From: Candidatus Melainabacteria bacterium 17Bon1m
GTDB lineage: Bacteria > Cyanobacteriota > Vampirovibrionia > Obscuribacterales > Obscuribacteraceae
Assembly: GCA_032128875.1 (NCBI GenBank)
Contig: JAVLKG010000003.1
Coordinates: 984,974 to 1,048,973, forward strand
DNA: 64,000 nucleotides
Reading direction: 5' to 3'
The notes below the pieces were generated by a model that saw nothing but the letters and a program-made list of their open reading frames with translations, was not told the origin of the DNA and did no database searches. The position numbers were made by a program, and so were the translations under genes. Below are positions 14,496-41,539 of this stretch, piece by piece. Positions within the stretch are counted from its first letter, which is position 1, and each line of letters begins with the position of its first letter.

Positions 14496-15338
14496 TTGTG
14501 GGCAATGAATGTAGATCACCTCTATAAGCTGTATTACGACCGTCACGCGACAGTCAGAACCAGGTGTCCCGAAAACGTTCATTACTTCTGGAAGGCTCAT
14601 GAAAAAACATGGACCGGCCGCGAAGTGGAATCTATAACCAAGCGCGAAATCCAAGATTGGATGGATGATGTGGCTCAATCAAGCCGCTCGTCTGCAACAA
14701 GAGCCGTCAATCAACTCTCCGCAATATTTGGATGGGGGATAAAACGCGGCTATATAGAGTCGAACCCGTGTATTGGTGTCGAAAGGTACAAGATCAAATC
14801 TCGTGAAAGATTCTTGATGCCAGGCGAACTATCGAAATTTCGAGCTTCGCTAAATCAAGAGCCCGAATTGTTACGGGATTTCTTCTACATCTGCCTGTTA
14901 ACGGGTGCACGTCGTGGCAACGTTCAGGCTATGCGATGGGATGAAATAGATCTCGATCTAAATATATGGCGATTCGATTCGAAGAATGATGATTCACAGG
15001 TCTTACCAATCATGCCCGCGGTAAAAGCAATTTTGTTGCGACGAGCACTTGTAAGCACATCACCTTTTGTTTTTCCGGGCCGGTATGGTGGACATCTCAA
15101 AGAACCGAAACGAGCTTGGGCGCGGGTTCTGAAAAGGGCTGGGATTTCCAATCTGAGAATTCATGACCTTCGGCGGACGGTTGGGTCTTACATGGCAATT
15201 AAAGGCGAATCAGCCTATGTCATTGGCAAAGCATTGGGGCACAGGGATCAGCGGTCCACTGCCGTCTATGCAAAGCTCAACTTAGAGCCGGTCAAATCAG
15301 CATTTGGAACCATCGAATCTATTCTTCTGCCATCTTGA
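14496..15338 (+). CDS. int: Tyrosine integrase
   Basis: LTGARRG, HDLRRT, LGH...TAVYA catalytic motifs; next to attL. Confidence 0.95.
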   Translation: MWAMNVDHLYKLYYDRHATVRTRCPENVHYFWKAHEKTWTGREVESITKREIQDWMDDVAQSSRSSATRAVNQLSAIFGWGIKRGYIESNPCIGVERYKIKSRERFLMPGELSKFRASLNQEPELLRDFFYICLLTGARRGNVQAMRWDEIDLDLNIWRFDSKNDDSQVLPIMPAVKAILLRRALVSTSPFVFPGRYGGHLKEPKRAWARVLKRAGISNLRIHDLRRTVGSYMAIKGESAYVIGKALGHRDQRSTAVYAKLNLEPVKSAFGTIESILLPS

Positions 15339-16020: not shown

Positions 16021-16689
16021 ATGTCTAATGTAGTCCCGATCAATCAAAAGACTCTATCTATCGTTCCGCAACAGAACGCATTTACAACAGCTATGTCATT
16101 GGTTCCAATCAAGAAGAAGCGATTTGGCGGCAGACCGCCGAAAGGACCGAACAACCCGCACACCCGGAAGGCGCTCAGCAAAGAAGAGCTTGAGCGAGTA
16201 TTCGAGGCAGCGAAGACGGCGAGCAGATACGGGCATCGTGATTACTGCATGATGTTGATTGCATATCGTCACGCGCTGCGCTCCAGCGAGATCTCCAAAT
16301 TGCATTGGTCAATGATTGATCTCGACAAGAAAGAAATATACATTCCTCGATCAAAAGGCGGTCAATCGAATTATCATCCGCTATCGGATCTTGAAATCAA
16401 AGAATTGAATTGGCTGCCTGATCATCGTGGATATGTATTCAAGGCTCAAACTGGTGGCAACCTGCAAGCCAGAGCCATCTTCAAAATAGTTGCTCGAGCC
16501 GGCAGACTCGCTGGACTTAATTTCCCACTTCATCCACACATGTTCAGGCATTCAAAGCTGACTCATCTGGCGGAGCGGAAGACTGACGCGTTCATTCTTC
16601 AGAACTTCGCTGGTCACAAAGACATTAGATCGACTCAAGAATATGTGAAAGAGGCAAAATGGCAATTTGAGGGGCTGACTGAAGACTAA
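16021..16689 (+). CDS. Second tyrosine recombinase, FimB/FimE-like (catalytic domain only)
   Basis: RYGHRDYCMMLIAYRHALRSSE, RSKGG...HPL, HPHMFRHS, AGHKDIRSTQEY. Confidence 0.88.
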   Translation: MSNVVPINQKTLSIVPQQNAFTTAMSLVPIKKKRFGGRPPKGPNNPHTRKALSKEELERVFEAAKTASRYGHRDYCMMLIAYRHALRSSEISKLHWSMIDLDKKEIYIPRSKGGQSNYHPLSDLEIKELNWLPDHRGYVFKAQTGGNLQARAIFKIVARAGRLAGLNFPLHPHMFRHSKLTHLAERKTDAFILQNFAGHKDIRSTQEYVKEAKWQFEGLTED

Positions 16690-22079: not shown

Positions 22080-22360
22080 TTTATTACACAGTCCATTTCT
22101 TCGATTCATTCACCAATCGCCGCGCAACGCTCGATTATGACATTGCCGACTGGGATGATGAATCAAGTGAATTCCTCTGGAATGAACATAATTGGGGCTG
22201 TGACTGCAATCGAATGTCAGTCTTCGAAGACGAAGAAGAAACCAAATGTGTTTATGAATTCGCTGGAAAGCATGTGGATCGCCGCGTCTTCATTGAAAAG
22301 ATCGTTCATCGAGACGGCAGAATTCTCTATCAAGAAGATATCGAATCAATCTGGACCTAA
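22076..22360 (+). CDS. Phage protein with NWGCDCNR motif
   Basis: FLWNEHNWGCDCNR; overlapping start/stop with previous gene. Confidence 0.65.
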   Translation: MIYYTVHFFDSFTNRRATLDYDIADWDDESSEFLWNEHNWGCDCNRMSVFEDEEETKCVYEFAGKHVDRRVFIEKIVHRDGRILYQEDIESIWT

Positions 22361-22584
22361 CATGGACTTTCCCGAAGAATCTGAACCAGAACGCCATTGT
22401 TCCGGTCCTGAACCGATCATTCATGAATCCCAGAACGATTTCTGGTGGCCGGGTTCTGCCGGCAATTGCCTTGATACAGATGATCATTTTGATGAAAATC
22501 CTGACTAAAAAGCCCCGGGTGAGTTACTTCCGGAGCCCTTTAGACAGGAGGATTTATGTCTTCGATTTCTTGATTGCAGAAAAA

Positions 22585-22627
22585 TGATACCACGGATAGT
22601 ATCACTTTTCCAATTCTATGCTATGAT
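22585..22627 (+). promoter_or_regulatory. Operator-like palindrome plus extended -10 promoter of the RNA cluster
   Basis: TGATACC-ACGGAT-AGTATCA (22585-22604); TGcTATGAT at 22619-22627. Confidence 0.6.
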
Positions 22628-22649
22628 TAATTACATGATCAATCAACTT

Positions 22650-22971
22650 CCCGGAGGCAGACCGGGCTTTTCAGTGATTTCCTCCAAGCCCAGCCACTGG
22701 GGGATTAATAGGTCGATTGAGTGTGAAGGATGCGCCCCGACGGGTGGGATAACTGGGAATGCCCTAGCTTCCGGATTAGGTAATTGATTGGACCCTTTGT
22801 CTGACGGGACAATAAATCAATCACATGCCAGGCTGGTTTTAATCGATCAGCGTGGCTTCATGGGAAATCGGAAGGCTTACAATCCTTCCCCCTCTTGCGA
22901 GACAGGCTTAAACGTCCGCTGAATACAGCGGGGCTAGTTATTAGAGGGTCTGCTGAAACCAGTGATTTCCC
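22650..22971 (+). ncRNA. Candidate large structured ncRNA of unknown family
   Basis: Nested helices GCAGACC/GGTCTGC, GGGCTT/AAGCCC, AGCCAC/GTGGCT, GATTAA/TTAATC, TGATTG/CAATCA, TTGTC/GACAA, GGAAGG/CCTTCC, CCGCTG/CAGCGG; no credible ORF. Confidence 0.65.
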
Positions 22972-22976
22972 TATTT

Positions 22977-23050
22977 GGGCTCGTAGTGTAATGGTTAGCA
23001 CGGCACCGCTCGAGGTGTAAGAGCATGTTCGAATCATGCAGGGTCCACCA
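22977..23050 (+). tRNA. Non-canonical tRNA-like RNA (Ala-type acceptor, 6-nt anticodon loop)
   Basis: D arm GTGT/GCAC, stem GCACC/GGTGT with loop GCTCGA, T arm GCATG-TTCGAAT-CATGC, 3' ACCA; G3:U70 and A73. Confidence 0.75.
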
Positions 23051-23070
23051 ATTTTATTGAGAGAGAAATC

Positions 23071-23280
23071 ATGCCAGAAATTAAAGATCCTTTCGAATAT
23101 CACAAACCATCAGAGAAGCAATTGTGTGTCTTGTCTCAGCTTCGCGCGAAGTGCAAGGAATTGAACGATCTCCAAATGCAATTGCTCCCGCCTGGTCGCT
23201 GCCGATCACTGGCTGTAACTAAGCTGGAAGAAGTTTCGATGTGGCAGAATAAAGCTGCCGTGTTTGAATTGGCGGAATAA
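23071..23280 (+). CDS. Acb2/Tad1-like helical-hairpin protein (candidate immune-signal sponge)
   Basis: FEYHKP ... LRAKCKEL ... PPGRCRSLAVTKLEEVSMWQNKA. Confidence 0.72.
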   Translation: MPEIKDPFEYHKPSEKQLCVLSQLRAKCKELNDLQMQLLPPGRCRSLAVTKLEEVSMWQNKAAVFELAE

Positions 23281-23291
23281 CCGCCCTTCTT

Positions 23292-23367
23292 GGTCCTGTC
23301 GTCTAGTGGCCCAGGATTCCGCGTTGTCGCCGCGGAGACGCGGATTCGAATTCCGCCAGGACCGCCA
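23292..23367 (+). tRNA. tRNA-Asp(GTC)
   Basis: GGTCCTG/CAGGACC acceptor, CCGCG-TTGTCGC-CGCGG, encoded CCA. Confidence 0.92.
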
Positions 23368-23371
23368 CTTT

Positions 23372-23447
23372 GCCCGATTAGTTTAGTTGGAAAAATGCCA
23401 GCCTTCCAAGTTGGTGTCGCCGGTTCGAATCCAGGCATTGGGCTCCA
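23372..23447 (+). tRNA. tRNA-Gly(TCC)
   Basis: GCCCGAT/ATTGGGC, CCAGC-CTTCCAA-GTTGG, U73, CCA; bulged A in T stem. Confidence 0.88.
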
Positions 23448-23452
23448 ATTTT

Positions 23453-23525
23453 GCCGAAATAGCTGAGACGGTTCAAGCGCCGGTCTGCAAAACCGGAGAC
23501 ATCAGTTCGAGTCTGATTTTTGGCT
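23453..23525 (+). tRNA. tRNA-Cys(GCA)
   Basis: GCCGAAA/TTTTGGC, CCGGT-CTGCAAA-ACCGG, U73, no encoded CCA. Confidence 0.85.
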
Positions 23526-23529
23526 TTAT

Positions 23530-23614
23530 GCAACAGTATCCAAGCTGGCTCAAGGACGCGGCCTGTAAAGTCGTTGGTTAACCCCGGTCATTGGTTCGAA
23601 TCCAATCTGTTGCA
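23530..23614 (+). tRNA. tRNA-Tyr(GTA)
   Basis: GCAACAG/CTGTTGC, GCGGC-CTGTAAA-GTCGT, long variable arm. Confidence 0.88.
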
Positions 23615-23618
23615 ATTT

Positions 23619-23690
23619 TGCCTTGTCGTCTAACTGGTAGGACAGCGGACTTTGAATCCGTTAATGGACGTTCGAACCGTCCCGAGGCAG
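23619..23690 (+). tRNA. tRNA-Gln(TTG)
   Basis: TGCCTTG/CGAGGCA (U1-A72), GCGGA-CTTTGAA-TCCGT. Confidence 0.9.
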
Positions 23691-23711
23691 CTTACTAAAT
23701 CATAGAAATTT

Positions 23712-23741
23712 GAAAGCCGCCCTGGTGGGAGCGGCTTTCTT
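23712..23741 (+). terminator. Terminator after tRNA array
   Basis: GAAAGCCGC/GCGGCTTTC stem. Confidence 0.7.
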
Positions 23742-23831
23742 GGCGAACGGGGGAGTCGTTCTCTTTTATCTTGTCAGACCACCAAACCCAATCAATTAAT
23801 CAATCCAATTTCCTGATCGAAATAAATCGAA

Positions 23832-23851
23832 TGCCACCATAAGCGGTATCA
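23832..23851. promoter_or_regulatory. Operator-like palindrome
   Basis: TGCCACC-ATAAGC-GGTATCA upstream of 23869. Confidence 0.65.
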
Positions 23852-23868
23852 CTTATTGGGGAAATTGA

Positions 23869-24372
23869 ATGAGATATATTCTCGAAATAGATGAAAAAGG
23901 AATCCCGAGACTAAAGGGATTCAATGAAGATTTAGCCGTTCAAATGGCGGCAGAACTTGAATTGATCGGTCGAATGGTTGGCGCCCAAGACGGGGAAAGA
24001 GCCAGCCATGCTTTGACTAATGTCAATGAGCGCATGTCAACGCTGAGAGCGGAGAACACAGATCTTAGAAATCAGGTTTCTACCCTGCGGGCTGAAGCTA
24101 AGAAGTACGAAGAACTCAATCACGCGCGCGGTCGCGAGATGCGCTCATTGTTCGGATTCAATCCAAGCATTAGCTATGAAGAATTCGTTGGTCATCTCAG
24201 AGTCTTGGGCGACGCCTACAAGAGACAAGCGGCGAAATATACCGGCGGAATATCTATCCAGTCGATATTGGATCTGCAAAAGCAATTCGCGCCGTACATG
24301 ACACCCAAGCCGATCGTCATGGATCGTCCGGCCTCAATTCATCGCGGCTCGCCGCTCATTTGGGGTAACTAA
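23869..24372 (+). CDS. Coiled-coil hypothetical protein
   Basis: LRAENTDLRNQVSTLRAE heptads. Confidence 0.65.
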   Translation: MRYILEIDEKGIPRLKGFNEDLAVQMAAELELIGRMVGAQDGERASHALTNVNERMSTLRAENTDLRNQVSTLRAEAKKYEELNHARGREMRSLFGFNPSISYEEFVGHLRVLGDAYKRQAAKYTGGISIQSILDLQKQFAPYMTPKPIVMDRPASIHRGSPLIWGN

Positions 24373-24374
24373 TC

Positions 24375-25091
24375 ATGATTGAATATCCCAAAGTTGATTC
24401 TCTGTTCAAGAGAGACGAGAAGACCCAGAAGGTAAACGGGGAGATCAGGCATAGAGAATATGATTTGGTCACCCATTGGGTTGTTTCCGAAAAGATTCAC
24501 GGTCAGAATGTTCGCGTCCATTGGGACGGAACTAATGAACAAATCACATTAGGCAGCCGCCGGCAGACCGGAGATGACAGCCTTCCGAAAGATCTGGTCA
24601 GTCATATCAGAGAAAGAATCACTGTCGACAAGATGAAGGCGGCTTTTGGGCCGGCGACAGTCACGCTCTTTGGTGAAGGTTACGGACCTGGTATCAATGG
24701 CGGTGGCGATCTGGCAGACTCCAAGAGATTCGCTCTCTTTGATTGCCGAATTGACAAGGCTGATGGTTGGTGGATGGAACCAGATCAACTCGAAGGTGTT
24801 GGGGAGCACTTTGGAATTGAAACGGCTCCAGTCTTGAAAGGGCTCCTAACTCTTCAGGAAATCATTCCGATGGTCAGGAAAGGTTTCAATTCAATTGTGG
24901 CTCTGAAGAATACTGGGAAAGAAGTCTGGGCTGAAGGCGTCGTTTGTCGCACTTATCCCGCGCTGAAATTCCGGGATGGAACAAGACTCCAATTCAAACT
25001 CAAGACCGAAGACTTCGCTAAGAATGTGATCGCTCTCCCTCAGAGAAAGGGAATCATTCAGGTCGAAGGCGTTCTATCGCCGGCGGGATAG
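24375..25091 (+). CDS. RNA ligase, Rnl2-like family
   Basis: EYPKVDSLFKRD, motif I EKIHGQN, LFGEGYG, FALFD, EGVVCR, FKLKTEDF. Confidence 0.85.
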   Translation: MIEYPKVDSLFKRDEKTQKVNGEIRHREYDLVTHWVVSEKIHGQNVRVHWDGTNEQITLGSRRQTGDDSLPKDLVSHIRERITVDKMKAAFGPATVTLFGEGYGPGINGGGDLADSKRFALFDCRIDKADGWWMEPDQLEGVGEHFGIETAPVLKGLLTLQEIIPMVRKGFNSIVALKNTGKEVWAEGVVCRTYPALKFRDGTRLQFKLKTEDFAKNVIALPQRKGIIQVEGVLSPAG

Positions 25092-25179: not shown

Positions 25180-25269
25180 TGGCGGATTGTGAACGATTCG
25201 AACGTTCGGCACCCTCTCGGGAGCGCCCGGTTAGCAACCGAGTGCATTAGACCTCTCTGCCAACAATCC
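25180..25269 (-). tRNA. tRNA-Ser(GCT)
   Basis: GGATTGT/ACAATCC, CTCGG-TTGCTAA-CCGGG, long variable arm, GCCA end. Confidence 0.92.
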
Positions 25270-25270
25270 A

Positions 25271-25348
25271 TGGTTGCGAGAGGTTCGATTCGAACGAACG
25301 ATCTTTGGGATATGAGCCCAACGAGATAGACCACTTCTCTACTCCGCA
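25271..25348 (-). tRNA. tRNA-Met(CAT), initiator-like
   Basis: TTGGG-CTCATAT-CCCAA with three G-C pairs; CGCAACCA end; one extra base in the acceptor stem. Confidence 0.82.
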
Positions 25349-35158: not shown

Positions 35159-36818
35159 GCAGATTCTAGAAATGGTGGCTCAAGAAGCCGCCGTTGAAGC
35201 AATCCAATGGGAACAGAATAGACAAGATAGAGCAATCAAAGACCGGGCAGAACTAACTGTTCGCTGTGCTTATTCGCTGGAAGAGCGCGCCGCGGAGCTC
35301 GTACTTTGCCGCGAAGATATTTTTCACTGGTTAGATAACTGGTGTTGGATTGAAGAGCCGCGCGCCGATGTCCAAGAAATCCCATTCTTAAGATACGACT
35401 TCCAGACCGAATTCATTCAATGGGTGGTTGATAACGTCGCTGAAACTCTCGGCACGATCAAGAAGAAAACCCTATTGATTGAGAAATCCCGGGACATGGG
35501 GGTTAGCTGGACGTTAATCGCCGTCGCTGTCTGGTACTGGCTATTCCACAACAGATCATCTCTATTTGGATCAAGAAAAGCTGAATTAGCCGACAAATTG
35601 GGCGACATGAAAACCTTGCTGGAAAAAGCAAGATTCATCATCCGCCGACTTCCTGAATGGATGTGGCCGATCGGATTTGACCAGAAAGAAGATATGGGTC
35701 ACAACCTGATCAAGAACCCCAACGGTGGCGCGATTACCGCTGAAGCCAGTTGCGTCGACTTCGGACGGGGGGACAGAAAACTTTTCATTGTCCTGGACGA
35801 ATTTGCCAGTTGGCCGTATGACGACGCTGCAGCAAAATCAGCCGGCGGATCTTCATCTGTCCTGATTTTCGTATCAACTCCGAAAGGACCATATAACAAG
35901 TTCGCCCGGATGGCTCGAGGCGAAGACGACGTTACACCACTGATCAAAACACTGCATTGGACGCAGCACCCGATCAAAGCGGCTGGAATGTCGATGGATC
36001 ACGCAGGTAAACCGACTAGCCCTTGGTACCGCGAGCAGTGCAATTCAGGAACATTCTCAGCCGATGACATCGCTTCAGAATTCGATCTGAACTATGCGCA
36101 TTCGACCAAAGGACTTGTATTCCCGGACTATGTAGCCAATTGGCACAGAATGAAACTAATTCCGGATGAAAGATCCCCGATCATTCGGGTTTGGGATCCT
36201 GGAGTTAAGACATTCTATGTTCTCTTTTGCCAGGTCGATAAAGACCGCCGGATTCTTTGCCTTGATGAAGTCTGCATTACAGACGCCAATCTACACGATG
36301 TAGCGCAAGAAGTTTTGAGAGTCAGCAATGAACGCTTCAGGCGTTTCAATTTCCTGGACTGTGGCGACCCTGCTGGATCCAGAATCACTAACTCGCTGCA
36401 AGAATCGCCCGAGTTTGAAACGCTACGTGATGAATATGACATTGATATTGATGTGTCATTCATGGACGGAATGCGATCTGATTTGAAGGTCAAATCAAGA
36501 ATCACAGCGATTCACAACAAGCTCAGAGAGCTGAACGCCAGAACCAATACACCCGGTTTATTGATTGACCATGAGCGATGCCCCACGCTTGATAGGGCAA
36601 TGCTCGAAGGCTACCGATACAAGGTAGACAAGCACACGAAACGTGTTTCGGAAATTGTCGATGAAGAACACCCTTGGGAAGATGCGGTTGACTGTCTTGG
36701 TATGGGAATCCTATACAAACTCGGTCTTGGTACCAACAAACAAGGTAGCAAGAAAGTTGAGATTGAGAAGAATGTCATTCGTTGGCCCGGTCAAATGAGG
36801 CGCCAAAGAATTGTTTGA
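35127..36818 (+). CDS. terL: Terminase large subunit
   Basis: Walker A EKSRDMGVSW, Walker B IVLDEFA, VSTPKG, nuclease WDPG, CGDPAG, HPWEDAVDC. Confidence 0.92.
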   Translation: MNSPNASLSPEQILEMVAQEAAVEAIQWEQNRQDRAIKDRAELTVRCAYSLEERAAELVLCREDIFHWLDNWCWIEEPRADVQEIPFLRYDFQTEFIQWVVDNVAETLGTIKKKTLLIEKSRDMGVSWTLIAVAVWYWLFHNRSSLFGSRKAELADKLGDMKTLLEKARFIIRRLPEWMWPIGFDQKEDMGHNLIKNPNGGAITAEASCVDFGRGDRKLFIVLDEFASWPYDDAAAKSAGGSSSVLIFVSTPKGPYNKFARMARGEDDVTPLIKTLHWTQHPIKAAGMSMDHAGKPTSPWYREQCNSGTFSADDIASEFDLNYAHSTKGLVFPDYVANWHRMKLIPDERSPIIRVWDPGVKTFYVLFCQVDKDRRILCLDEVCITDANLHDVAQEVLRVSNERFRRFNFLDCGDPAGSRITNSLQESPEFETLRDEYDIDIDVSFMDGMRSDLKVKSRITAIHNKLRELNARTNTPGLLIDHERCPTLDRAMLEGYRYKVDKHTKRVSEIVDEEHPWEDAVDCLGMGILYKLGLGTNKQGSKKVEIEKNVIRWPGQMRRQRIV

Positions 36819-38820
36819 GAAACTTCGATTTATCCAATCCAACATTCCCCCGGTAACCTCCGATTACTGGAAGGAACCGGCACAACAGCTATACAACCAA
36901 TATAAGTACTTCGAAGAAGCCAGCCTAGATCTAAGAACAAATATTTGGCCCGCTTGCGCGCGAGCTTATTTCTGTCGCCGGCAATTGCCAGACAATGAAG
37001 GTATGGATTGGGCAAACGGATCCGATCTGGGTGAAACGGATATTTGGGATTCCGTTAACTATGCGGGCGACGCGCTATCCTTGGCGCTCTTCCCTCGCGA
37101 CCAATCTTATCTAGAACTGCTCAGCCAATACGAAGAAGATCAAGGCCTGTTGAATGACATCAGAGATCTTCTGATGATGTATCACCGGCAAGCTGACACC
37201 CGCGGTCAGTATGCGCGGCACATCAAACAGATGCTTATCTATGGAACGTCGGCTATCCGCTGGACGTGGCGCACGATTGAAGATCACAAGCAATTCCCGC
37301 CAACTGAAACTTTGCGCCGACTGTTGGAAGAAGGTGTTGAATTAGATCCGCTCGAAGACATCACCAAAACATATAAGAAGTATAAATTCCCGGTTAAGAC
37401 CTTCAACGGTCCTGTTATCCAGCCGGTCGATATGTACGACTTGTTTTTGGATCCTGCCGCTGATCTTTCCAATGAACACAAAACGGCAATCATTCAGCGT
37501 CTCTATTTGACGCCAGAAGAAATCGAACACGCCGAAGACGAGAACGGCGAGAAACGTTATTCGAATACAGACGGCATTGAACCAATGTCGCTTGAACAAA
37601 TCTATGGACAAGAATCAGAACGCCTTGAACTGGTAACTGAACTTGGATTGAATCCGATTGCCGCTGGCAATAGTTCAAAGAAGCTTGTTCCTGTTTACGT
37701 TTTTCACCAACCAGTGAGGAAATTTGACGGTGACAGCCATAAGTATGTCGACACCTATTTTTACCTGGCACTCAGCAACAGCCAAGAGCAATTCAAACTC
37801 ATTCGAGTCGAAGACAACCCCAACAGTCAGCTTGGCGGCCAGCGTACTGGAAGTAGGGGATTATATATTGACTCTTACGTGGATTGGCTTTCTGGTGCTT
37901 ATGGAATTGGCGCAGTTGAGAAATCCCTTTCCGCGTATGAACAGAAAAACGTAGTCGCGGCGCTCGGTCTGAACGCTCAATTGGCTTCCGTTTTCCCGGC
38001 ATACACCGTCATTGGTGGCGTGCTGCAGGACGATGCAAAGCTAAAAATGGCGCCCGGATCAATCAATGTGATCAACTATAAGCCGGCTATTGGAACTAAT
38101 TTCATTGCCCCTGTGCCAGCTCCAATCGGAACGGTTCAGTTAGGTATGCAGGCTGAACAATGGTATGGTCAAAAGATCGTTGGTCAATTCCAAGCCTACG
38201 GCGCTGCCGCTCAAGATCCAACCAAGTCGATCAAGACTGCAAAAACCGCAACTGAAATCAACACGCAGTCAACGACCGGATCTGTGATGAGAGATAACCT
38301 CTTGGAAAAAATCACGACCAGATCAGTTGAGCCGCTATTTCAAGACATCTATGAAGCTGCCCGCCTGTGGGTTGATGATATCAACACGTTTGAGAAATCA
38401 GCCGATGGCGATGGACGATTGGGTTCAGTTCAAAAGATGGATCTGGATCGCGACCGCCGCGTTATTTGTACCGGATTCCATGGACAAATGAATAAAGCCA
38501 AGGAAATTGAAGAACTGCAGAACGCTCTGCAAATCATCACGACCGGCAACGCGCTTGAACAGCTTCCGACCTTGCGCCCTGTCCTTCAGGATCTTGTATT
38601 CAAATTGCTGGGCCGCTTGGGCGTCAAGAATTTGGAGCAATACAAAGCTGATCCAATGCAGCTAATCATGAACGATCCAAATGTTCAGATGATGATCGAG
38701 CAAGAAATTCAGAAACGAATTGCCCAGTTGACAGGTCAGCCCGCGGTACCATCACCACAAGAAGGACCGCCACCAGGGGCGGTACCACCTGAAATGATGG
38801 GAGCCCAACAGGCAGCATGA
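36811..38820 (+). CDS. Portal protein
   Basis: 669 aa after terL; MLIYGT, DLFLDP, YGIG, KTATEI; Q/P-rich tail. Confidence 0.85.
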   Translation: MFEKLRFIQSNIPPVTSDYWKEPAQQLYNQYKYFEEASLDLRTNIWPACARAYFCRRQLPDNEGMDWANGSDLGETDIWDSVNYAGDALSLALFPRDQSYLELLSQYEEDQGLLNDIRDLLMMYHRQADTRGQYARHIKQMLIYGTSAIRWTWRTIEDHKQFPPTETLRRLLEEGVELDPLEDITKTYKKYKFPVKTFNGPVIQPVDMYDLFLDPAADLSNEHKTAIIQRLYLTPEEIEHAEDENGEKRYSNTDGIEPMSLEQIYGQESERLELVTELGLNPIAAGNSSKKLVPVYVFHQPVRKFDGDSHKYVDTYFYLALSNSQEQFKLIRVEDNPNSQLGGQRTGSRGLYIDSYVDWLSGAYGIGAVEKSLSAYEQKNVVAALGLNAQLASVFPAYTVIGGVLQDDAKLKMAPGSINVINYKPAIGTNFIAPVPAPIGTVQLGMQAEQWYGQKIVGQFQAYGAAAQDPTKSIKTAKTATEINTQSTTGSVMRDNLLEKITTRSVEPLFQDIYEAARLWVDDINTFEKSADGDGRLGSVQKMDLDRDRRVICTGFHGQMNKAKEIEELQNALQIITTGNALEQLPTLRPVLQDLVFKLLGRLGVKNLEQYKADPMQLIMNDPNVQMMIEQEIQKRIAQLTGQPAVPSPQEGPPPGAVPPEMMGAQQAA

Positions 38821-40615: not shown

Positions 40616-41539
40616 ATGACCGTAAAAACTACAGATTTTCCGCCAGCTTTGAAGTCCACTCTTCATGACGTCTTCGAAGCAAGTTGGAAGAAAAGACAAG
40701 ATCAGTATTCACGGGTATTCGATGTTGAAACCAGCTTCGACGCCTATGAAGACGAGCTTCAGATCCAGGGTCCGGACGAAATTCCGGTAGCCACTGAAGG
40801 CAGCGTTTTTGAACGCGTTGAAATCGAGAATGTCCGCTCTAAGAGATACACCCACGCCATTTATAAGGGCGAGGTCAAGATCACTAGAGAGGCACTCGAT
40901 GATATCAAATACGGCAAGATCACTGACGCAGTTGCAAAATTGGCTATTGCTGGTTTTAGAACTGTTGAAAGAATTGGCGCCGCGTTCTTCTATAACGGCT
41001 TGATCGGATCGGAATTGTCGCCTGATGGCGCTGCCGTATTCGGTACGCACAACCTGTCTAACCCGCTGCCCGGTCGCCCGACGACTGACAGCAACGCAGG
41101 AACCGGAAGACTTGGTTCTACCAATATCCGCGCTGCCCGCGCTGACGGTCGCAAGACCCTTGACGAACATGGTTCTTTGGCTCCGTACTACCTGACTCAA
41201 TTGTTAGTTGGTCCGGATCTCGAAGATGAAGCCTATGTTCAAAAAGGCAGCGATCAAAAGCCTGGAACGACTAACAACGATGACAACTATACCGGTCGTC
41301 AGATCAAGGACATTGTTGTTCTCGACTTCTTGGCTGAAGCGCCGAACTACTCCGATTCCATGTGGTTCCTTCGTGATCCTGACATGGCAAGGAATAAATT
41401 CTTCTGGCGCGTCAAACCAGAACGCAAGCTGATCCAAGAGGAAGCTTCTGGAGACTGGCTCTATCGCCTGTACTTCCGCTGCTCCGCTGGATGCTCGGAC
41501 TGGCGCGGTTTGTGGGCTTCTACTGGTACCACTGCTTAA
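40616..41539 (+). CDS. Major capsid protein (Mu gpT-like)
   Basis: FDVETS..YE, EG, ITREALDD, DG..VFGTH, LLVGPDL, MWFL, SDWRGLWASTG. Confidence 0.85.
   Translation: MTVKTTDFPPALKSTLHDVFEASWKKRQDQYSRVFDVETSFDAYEDELQIQGPDEIPVATEGSVFERVEIENVRSKRYTHAIYKGEVKITREALDDIKYGKITDAVAKLAIAGFRTVERIGAAFFYNGLIGSELSPDGAAVFGTHNLSNPLPGRPTTDSNAGTGRLGSTNIRAARADGRKTLDEHGSLAPYYLTQLLVGPDLEDEAYVQKGSDQKPGTTNNDDNYTGRQIKDIVVLDFLAEAPNYSDSMWFLRDPDMARNKFFWRVKPERKLIQEEASGDWLYRLYFRCSAGCSDWRGLWASTGTTA

Follow-up and report, generated by a model that had tools for sequence, protein, structure and literature searches.

Genomic setting of the element

The stretch of DNA analysed here (the window, 64,000 nt, positions 984974-1048973 of its contig) lies within the 7.55-Mb genome of Candidatus Melainabacteria bacterium 17Bon1m and carries a prophage, which begins near two integrase genes (14496-15338 and 16021-16689) and extends through portal and capsid genes (36811-38820 and 40616-41539), all assigned via Pfam. 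In an accessory region of this prophage sits a structured-RNA element, a non-coding stretch of ~340 nt on the + strand at the head of a tRNA array.

The first tRNA gene of the array (22977-23050, +) was called by ARAGORN as 'tRNA-???' and matches the Rfam tRNA model with 40.3 bits and an anticodon loop of 6 nt, which reads GCTCGA in the Rfam alignment. By eye, its acceptor stem contains a G3:U70 pair and CCA is encoded. The gene could be decaying, or it could specify a decoy or a recoding tRNA; the locus L011 likewise has an ARAGORN 'tRNA-???'. It is followed by a gene for a 69-aa protein of the Acb2/Tad1-hairpin family (23071-23280, +; Pfam PF24729, E 1e-14), so that, judged by its domain match, a member of the anti-CBASS/Thoeris sponge family is encoded inside the tRNA array. 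Further downstream are five tRNA genes (Asp, Gly, Cys, Tyr and Gln; 23292-23691, +) with a terminator-like hairpin 3' of the run (~23712-23763), then a gene for a 167-aa protein, an RNA ligase gene (24375-25091; PF09414, PHROG 'RNA ligase') and, downstream of the latter, two tRNAs on the opposite strand (25180-25348). The Acb2-type gene within the array, together with the adjoining RNA ligase, looks like a counter-defence cassette.

The sequence GTATCACTT occurs exactly twice (22599-22607 and 23846-23854), each copy ~25-35 nt upstream of a unit, namely the RNA/tRNA unit and the 167-aa protein/RNA ligase unit. On its own it is not significant, with 11 matches at up to one mismatch versus 9.4 expected.

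A collinear homologue in an uncultivated phage

A scan of IMG/VR with the Acb2 protein returned 13 loci, and the element is present in one of them alone, L002, which is situated on an uncultivated phage contig and is the only full homologue. From the integrase to ~26.3 kb, the L002 contig and the prophage are collinear, apart from window 20.95-22.78 kb with its dissimilar genes. The order hairpin, palindrome, TGnTAnnnT motif, RNA, tRNA, acb2 and more tRNAs is common to both phages; the non-coding stretch measures ~340 nt in the window and ~400 nt in L002, the tRNA after the element differs between the two, and the Acb2-type proteins are 86% identical. L002 also carries a corresponding hairpin, CCGCTTATGGTGG, at the second GTATCACTT site.

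Compared with the RNA by blastn, L002 matches window 22781-22932 at 75%. At the nucleotide level, the 3' part (75-79% identical to L002) does not exceed the flanking genes (68-80%) in identity, and the signal therefore lies in the pattern of changes and not in mere conservation. L002 reveals an extra 58-nt hairpin between the element and the tRNA, which means that exact juxtaposition to the tRNA is unnecessary. A long-range helix of 12 pairs is predicted in L002 between 2554-2566 and 2850-2862 (p of at least 0.9), linking the 5' domain to the 3' tail; it involves the 58-nt tail hairpin, which the window lacks, and has no positional equivalent there.

Upstream boundary and putative promoter

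The conserved non-coding block begins at ~22509, so the 5' end of the RNA may lie farther upstream than assumed here. Directly 3' of the upstream stop codon, a hairpin (22512-22536, +; stem 22512-18/22530-36) presents the 11-nt loop GTGAGTTACTT, which is identical in L002 (~2389-2415), while the stem shows two compensatory pairs; the genes upstream of this hairpin are not alike in the two phages. It may mark a terminator-like boundary, bind a protein or be where the conserved non-coding block truly begins. Between the hairpin and the palindrome, an SD-like GGAGG/GGAG precedes a mini-ORF (22547-22574; L002 ~2424-2463) of five codons in the window and eight in L002, with conservation limited to 'TATGTCT'.

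The palindrome TGATAC-N8-GTATCA (22585-22604) has a single match within the window, compared with 0.01 expected, and both of its arms are invariant in L002. We presume it to be an operator, as did an earlier note on this DNA, made from the sequence alone; alternatively, it may be an RNA hairpin. The same note had also named an extended -10. The motif TGcTATGAT (22619-22627, +) can indeed be read as one by eye and has a counterpart in L002, TGaTAGATT, but a simple sigma-70 scan called no + strand promoter at this site, and for this reason we treat the -10 as putative; a transcript start inferred from it would fall at ~22633-22635. The scan did call three sigma-70-like sites on the - strand in 22584-22642, overlapping the palindrome, two of them with a TG before the -10 and including 22642-22613 and 22613-22584, so a divergent promoter is possible in this interval.

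Folding, coding content and Rfam

With a predicted energy of -123.4 kcal/mol, the + strand of 22650-22976 folds better than shuffled controls (z -3.50, 0/100 shuffles as good), while the - strand reaches z -1.87; for the 150-nt core (22826-22975), the values are z -4.88 on the + strand and -3.65 on the - strand. Several ORFs of 39-81 aa cross the element, among them one of 67 aa (22584-22787, +), one of 44 aa (22788-22922, +) and others on the - strand, so the stretch does contain ORFs, but none of these ORFs is common to the window element and L002.

A cmscan of 22630-22980 against all 4227 Rfam families gave no match, whether the gathering score or E<=10 was the cut-off (scans at E<=10 were run on 1001-nt and 351-nt slices), in line with the earlier view of an unrecognised RNA, and the L002 element likewise matched nothing in Rfam. 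The sole RF00005 match in 22300-23300 is 22977-23047. Within 22650-22971, ARAGORN reported neither a tRNA nor a tmRNA, its first called gene starting at 22977. RNase P RNA, group I intron, known ribozymes and tmRNA gave no Rfam match, and no boxA-like or put-like match was seen among the Rfam models. A riboswitch or attenuator leader was considered and rejected, there being no Rfam aptamer and no conserved expression platform, and the downstream gene being a tRNA. Terminator-like sites are found in the window RNA at 22650-66 and 22915-32; L002 2512-2909 contains no + strand terminator-like site and no U-rich counterpart of these two.

Structure and compensatory changes

For window 22778-22976, a structure of 55 pairs was drawn up from the fold of the window and a by-eye comparison with L002, and a model, R1, was built from the window sequence only by self-alignment. 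R1 finds L002 2656-2851 at 117 bits with one non-standard pair. In this alignment, 54 of the 55 pairs are kept, 13 pairs are changed on both sides, one on one side, and one is broken. The two-row alignment, which was fitted to R1 and with two sequences stays below R-scape-grade statistics, has 108 of 109 cells paired. When the 3' partners were moved by 1-3 columns, these slid controls displayed 0-1 double changes and 38-55% pairing. Helices Pa and Pe, the 22916-31 hairpin and the four outer pairs of Pc never vary between the window and L002 and are thus uninformative. Five G-U pairs are present in each of the two sequences; read from the opposite strand, these would turn into A-C mismatches. 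Folded independently, the 150-nt cores of both phages form the same hairpin and four-way junction (z -4.88 for the window, -3.87 for L002).

All helices described here are on the + strand. The 3' part opens with Pa (22785-90/22818-23), invariant versus L002, which encloses the hairpin Pb (22797-802/22807-12, loop GACG) with two compensatory pairs. The conserved 150-nt core (22825-22976) follows and closes 5 nt before the tRNA. It comprises the Pc/Pd hairpin (22827-30/22853-56 and 22832-38/22845-51), a joining UUCAU, and a four-way junction closed by Pe, in which GGGAAAU (22862-68) pairs with AUUUCCC (22965-71). Three arms leave the junction, namely Pf (22870-75/22884-89), the Pg-Ph arm (22890-95/22943-48 and 22905-08/22932-35), with the invariant bulge UAAACGU (22909-15) and the hairpin 22916-21/22926-31, and Pi (22950-52/22960-62). 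By eye, the Pb loop GACG is complementary to CGUC at the bulge and the Pd loops are palindromic, both features being invariant. The sequence UUAAACG is found three times in L002 (2535, 2713 and 2782), in the P2 loop, the Pd loop and the invariant bulge, and in the window exactly at the bulge only; it may be a repeated binding motif.

The 5' domain (22634-22777, ~145 nt) is variable and is too diverged between the phages for blastn, P1 and P2 being the only helices that can be followed. According to RNAalifold, P1 (22640-49/22710-19, nine pairs) encloses the hairpin P2 (22650-54/22662-66). Together they have 27/27 cells paired, with four pairs changed on both sides and none in slid controls, while 30 of 500 shuffles reached the same score and the structure was derived from the very alignment used to test it. 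Imposing P1 and P2 costs 7.4 kcal/mol in the window and 2.9 kcal/mol in L002, and the MFE fold of the window favours other 5' pairings. AUGA (22635-38) may pair with UCAU (22858-61), a contact that is predicted with p 0.60 in the window and kept in L002 by eye, with no covariation.

These data agree in part with the helices listed in the earlier note. Every complementary segment pair that it named is a perfect Watson-Crick match in the window, and its inner stems (22785-90/22818-23 and 22797-801/22808-12), its hairpins 22870-75/22884-89 and 22916-21/22926-31, and the pairing of GGAAATC (22863-69) with the 3' copy of a duplicated 11-mer are all kept in L002. Its three long-range helices clash with covarying helices: the end-closing one (22657-63/22947-53) overlaps P2, Pg and Pi, while of the two in the long arm, 22692-97/22852-57 competes with Pc and 22703-08/22839-44 takes up the Pd loop. 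The proposed hairpin 22664-69/22686-91 overlaps P2. Its broader claim of a multi-helix ncRNA heading the phage tRNA cluster gains from the single syntenic homologue, in which compensatory changes support the structure, and from the missing Rfam match.

A third phage variant and sequencing runs

A close relative of the prophage is present, in short contigs, in two runs of two further studies (X5 and X7). It shows 17 differences from the window across 22080-22580 and 27 across 23784-25069, and only two differences over the 151 positions of 22825-22975. Beyond this core, its contig departs from the window, over 54 nt on the upstream side of 22825 and 61 nt on the downstream side of 22975, so that the Pa/Pb part (22778-22824) falls outside its coverage. 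Another contig fuses tRNA pieces, joining 23445 to 23613, without acb2 and tRNA-Cys/Tyr; acb2 is thus apparently missing from this relative, a variant that is known by contig coordinates and not by letters and whose low-depth contigs may be wrong. Since the core is kept in a different context without acb2, it appears tied to the tRNA array rather than to acb2, which suggests that the 150-nt core is a conserved unit travelling with the tRNAs, with an exchangeable 5' part. Given the tail in L002 and the core contig of the X5/X7 relative, which differs from the window over the 61 nt past the core, the window may have lost a tail.

In two runs labelled 'RNA-Seq' (X2 and X4), which share a sample with the probable source DNA, the whole 4-kb stretch lies inside contigs of 27-44 kb with a flat depth of ~22; such long contigs and flat depth look like DNA, and these runs therefore give no evidence of transcription, ends or strand.

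Distribution of the RNA family

The RNA family is very rare. Among the INPHARED phages, blastn with the window and with L002 found nothing. Pattern scans of IMG/VR returned the L002 contig only, one scan giving three matches of which two were unrelated on inspection, and a scan with an alignment of a 103-aa protein again yielded only that contig. IMG/VR protein scans with the 94-aa neighbour and with the RNA ligase gave 0 each, though the locus L038 does carry the RNA ligase according to tblastx. When the 13 Acb2 loci (L002 included) were compared with R1, the others showed only fragments of 20-42 nt at E 1.2-5. A pattern scan of JGI metagenomes gave 12 matches, none of which fits R1 at E<=0.01 and three of which were inspected and are unrelated, and in GTDB genome contigs neither the RNA pattern nor the Acb2 alignment had a match. 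As the pattern scans demand exact motifs, diverged relatives would be missed by them.

The genome itself holds no copy or paralogue besides the locus, and none was found in 40 relatives, in 103 genomes of the family by CM, in 106 of the order, in a class sample of 150, or in phylum samples of 150 by CM and 400 by BLAST, these genome sets overlapping one another. Within the family, BLAST gave matches of 28-36 nt in three of 103 other genomes (E 0.001-0.01), which were judged to be due to chance and have no R1 match. A word search of the literature for such an RNA led to GOLLD and ROOL only (10.1101/2024.12.08.627333, PMC5737381, 10.1101/2023.03.15.532788), and an unnamed published motif could escape it.

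Comparison with known RNAs

The earlier note had pointed to GOLLD and ROOL, and the element does occupy the same tRNA-island position. Both are large structured phage RNAs beside tRNA islands whose assemblies have been solved and whose function is not known. In GOLLD, the 3' region is conserved while the 5' region varies (10.1101/2024.12.08.627333). The element resembles GOLLD in being encoded by a prophage next to a tRNA array, in its many helices and lack of coding capacity, and in combining a conserved 3' with a variable 5' part. The GOLLD model of Rfam, in contrast, does not match it even at E<=10, and it has ~340-400 nt while many GOLLD RNAs exceed 800 nt. With ROOL, it shares the genomic setting and the character of an 'ornate' RNA without a known protein partner (10.1101/2024.12.08.627333); again there is no model match, and size and helix layout differ.

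Two further comparisons concern the tRNA cluster itself. The core forms a four-way junction with a 7-bp closing stem and three arms at the site of a would-be tRNA gene in the array, and in this it recalls a tRNA cloverleaf; however, it fails the tRNA model and ARAGORN, displays no T-loop or D-loop signature, and its 'anticodon' arm is a long interrupted helix with a terminal tetraloop. In phage T4, the species 1 and 2 RNAs of the tRNA cluster are small stable non-tRNA RNAs that are co-transcribed with the tRNAs and released by tRNA-processing enzymes. Like the element, they are non-tRNA RNAs within a phage tRNA cluster, but they are much smaller.

Interpretation and alternative explanations

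The element is conserved in its structure, which reads on the + strand, and in its position. The pattern of compensatory changes, the G-U pairs, the asymmetry between the strands and the conserved location together make a functional structured RNA the best reading, and judging from the comparison of the two phages, the ~340-nt stretch is probably a new conserved structured ncRNA whose 3' core is conserved and whose 5' domain varies. If the stretch were non-functional spacer DNA or the remnant of a decayed gene or tRNA, with a structure arising by chance, this would fit the very narrow distribution and a conservation no higher than that of neighbouring genes. Such a stretch would hardly be expected to accumulate 13 + 4 compensatory pairs versus 0-1 in slid controls or to fold independently to the same MFE architecture in both phages, and since even at E<=10 no sign of a tRNA or another relic emerged, we regard this explanation as highly improbable. 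Likewise highly improbable is the reading of the earlier note, a conformational switch or self-joining RNA, with the two copies of CAGUGAUUUCC either rivals for GGAAAUC or the sites of recombination or circularisation. The repeat it builds on is real: the window contains the 11-mer CAGTGATTTCC in exactly two places, 22672 and 22960, each time on the + strand, with the 5' copy (22672-82) lying in the variable domain; both copies are perfectly complementary to 22863-69, and when 22634-22976 was mononucleotide-shuffled 20,000 times, 190 of the products had an exact repeat of at least 11 nt, so that chance is an unlikely source. Yet ATTTCC is present once in L002, at 2840, and the 5' copy is hence not conserved, which speaks against competing ends as well as against circularisation or recombination. 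Moreover, forcing GGAAATC onto the 5' copy gives -111.1 versus -124.8 kcal/mol, a loss of 13.7 kcal/mol, and in transcripts shortened to 22900 or 22955, the segment 22862-69 is never predicted to pair with the 5' copy. L002 keeps Pe in the form that uses the 3' copy, and the X5/X7 core spanning both Pe strands differs at just 2/151 positions.

A weightier alternative, though one we hold to be less likely than a released RNA, is a cis-acting leader of the tRNA operon, which would protect the untranslated transcript (from 5'-end-dependent decay or Rho), guide processing or make RNA polymerase termination-resistant, and would be functionless once cut off. Put-type and rrn-leader antitermination are precedents for such a role. 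In both full phages the element directly follows the presumed promoter and precedes the first tRNA, it is a single copy without a host paralogue, and the third phage links the core to the array and not to acb2, with a contig unlike the window past 22975. On the other hand, ~340 nt with at least 12 helices, an invariant bulge and invariant loops far exceed the needs of known leaders of this kind, the 58-nt hairpin of L002 separates the element from the tRNA, and no boxA-like or put-like Rfam match was seen. Size, invariant loops and bulge, the spacer hairpin of L002 and the precedent of GOLLD and ROOL, none of them decisive, lead us to prefer an RNA that is released and acts in trans, with a probability of roughly one half, to a leader acting purely in cis.

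Under the favoured reading of a released RNA, 22634-22976, with an uncertain 5' end, would encode a structured ncRNA of an undescribed family, forming the first element of a phage transcription unit that would continue with the tRNA, the acb2-type counter-defence gene and five more tRNAs. The putative promoter would drive this RNA/tRNA unit. RNase P cuts tRNA 5' ends, and given the gap of 5 nt between the core and the 5' end of the first tRNA, we infer that its cleavage there would set the 3' end of the RNA and free it as a separate molecule. The freed RNA might then act in trans, as a protein- or RNA-binding scaffold or a decoy in a tRNA, translation or counter-defence programme. More speculatively, and in our estimation unlikely, it could represent a third, compact class of 'ornate' tRNA-island phage RNA, freed by RNase P, which via its invariant loops and bulge (GACG, UAAACGU and the A/U-palindromic Pd loop) self-assembles or soaks up a host factor, e.g., a tRNA-targeting or nucleotide-signalling defence protein; on this view it would make up one counter-defence cassette together with the phage tRNAs, Acb2 and the RNA ligase.

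If the element is only a leader, the finding is a modest annotation point. What it adds to the RNAs of phage tRNA islands is a probable, much smaller RNA, unrelated to GOLLD and ROOL, in the same position, with genes for an anti-CBASS sponge and an RNA ligase as neighbours. Should it act in trans, it would provide a simpler system for asking what tRNA-island RNAs do, and it would add an RNA component to a phage counter-defence cassette.
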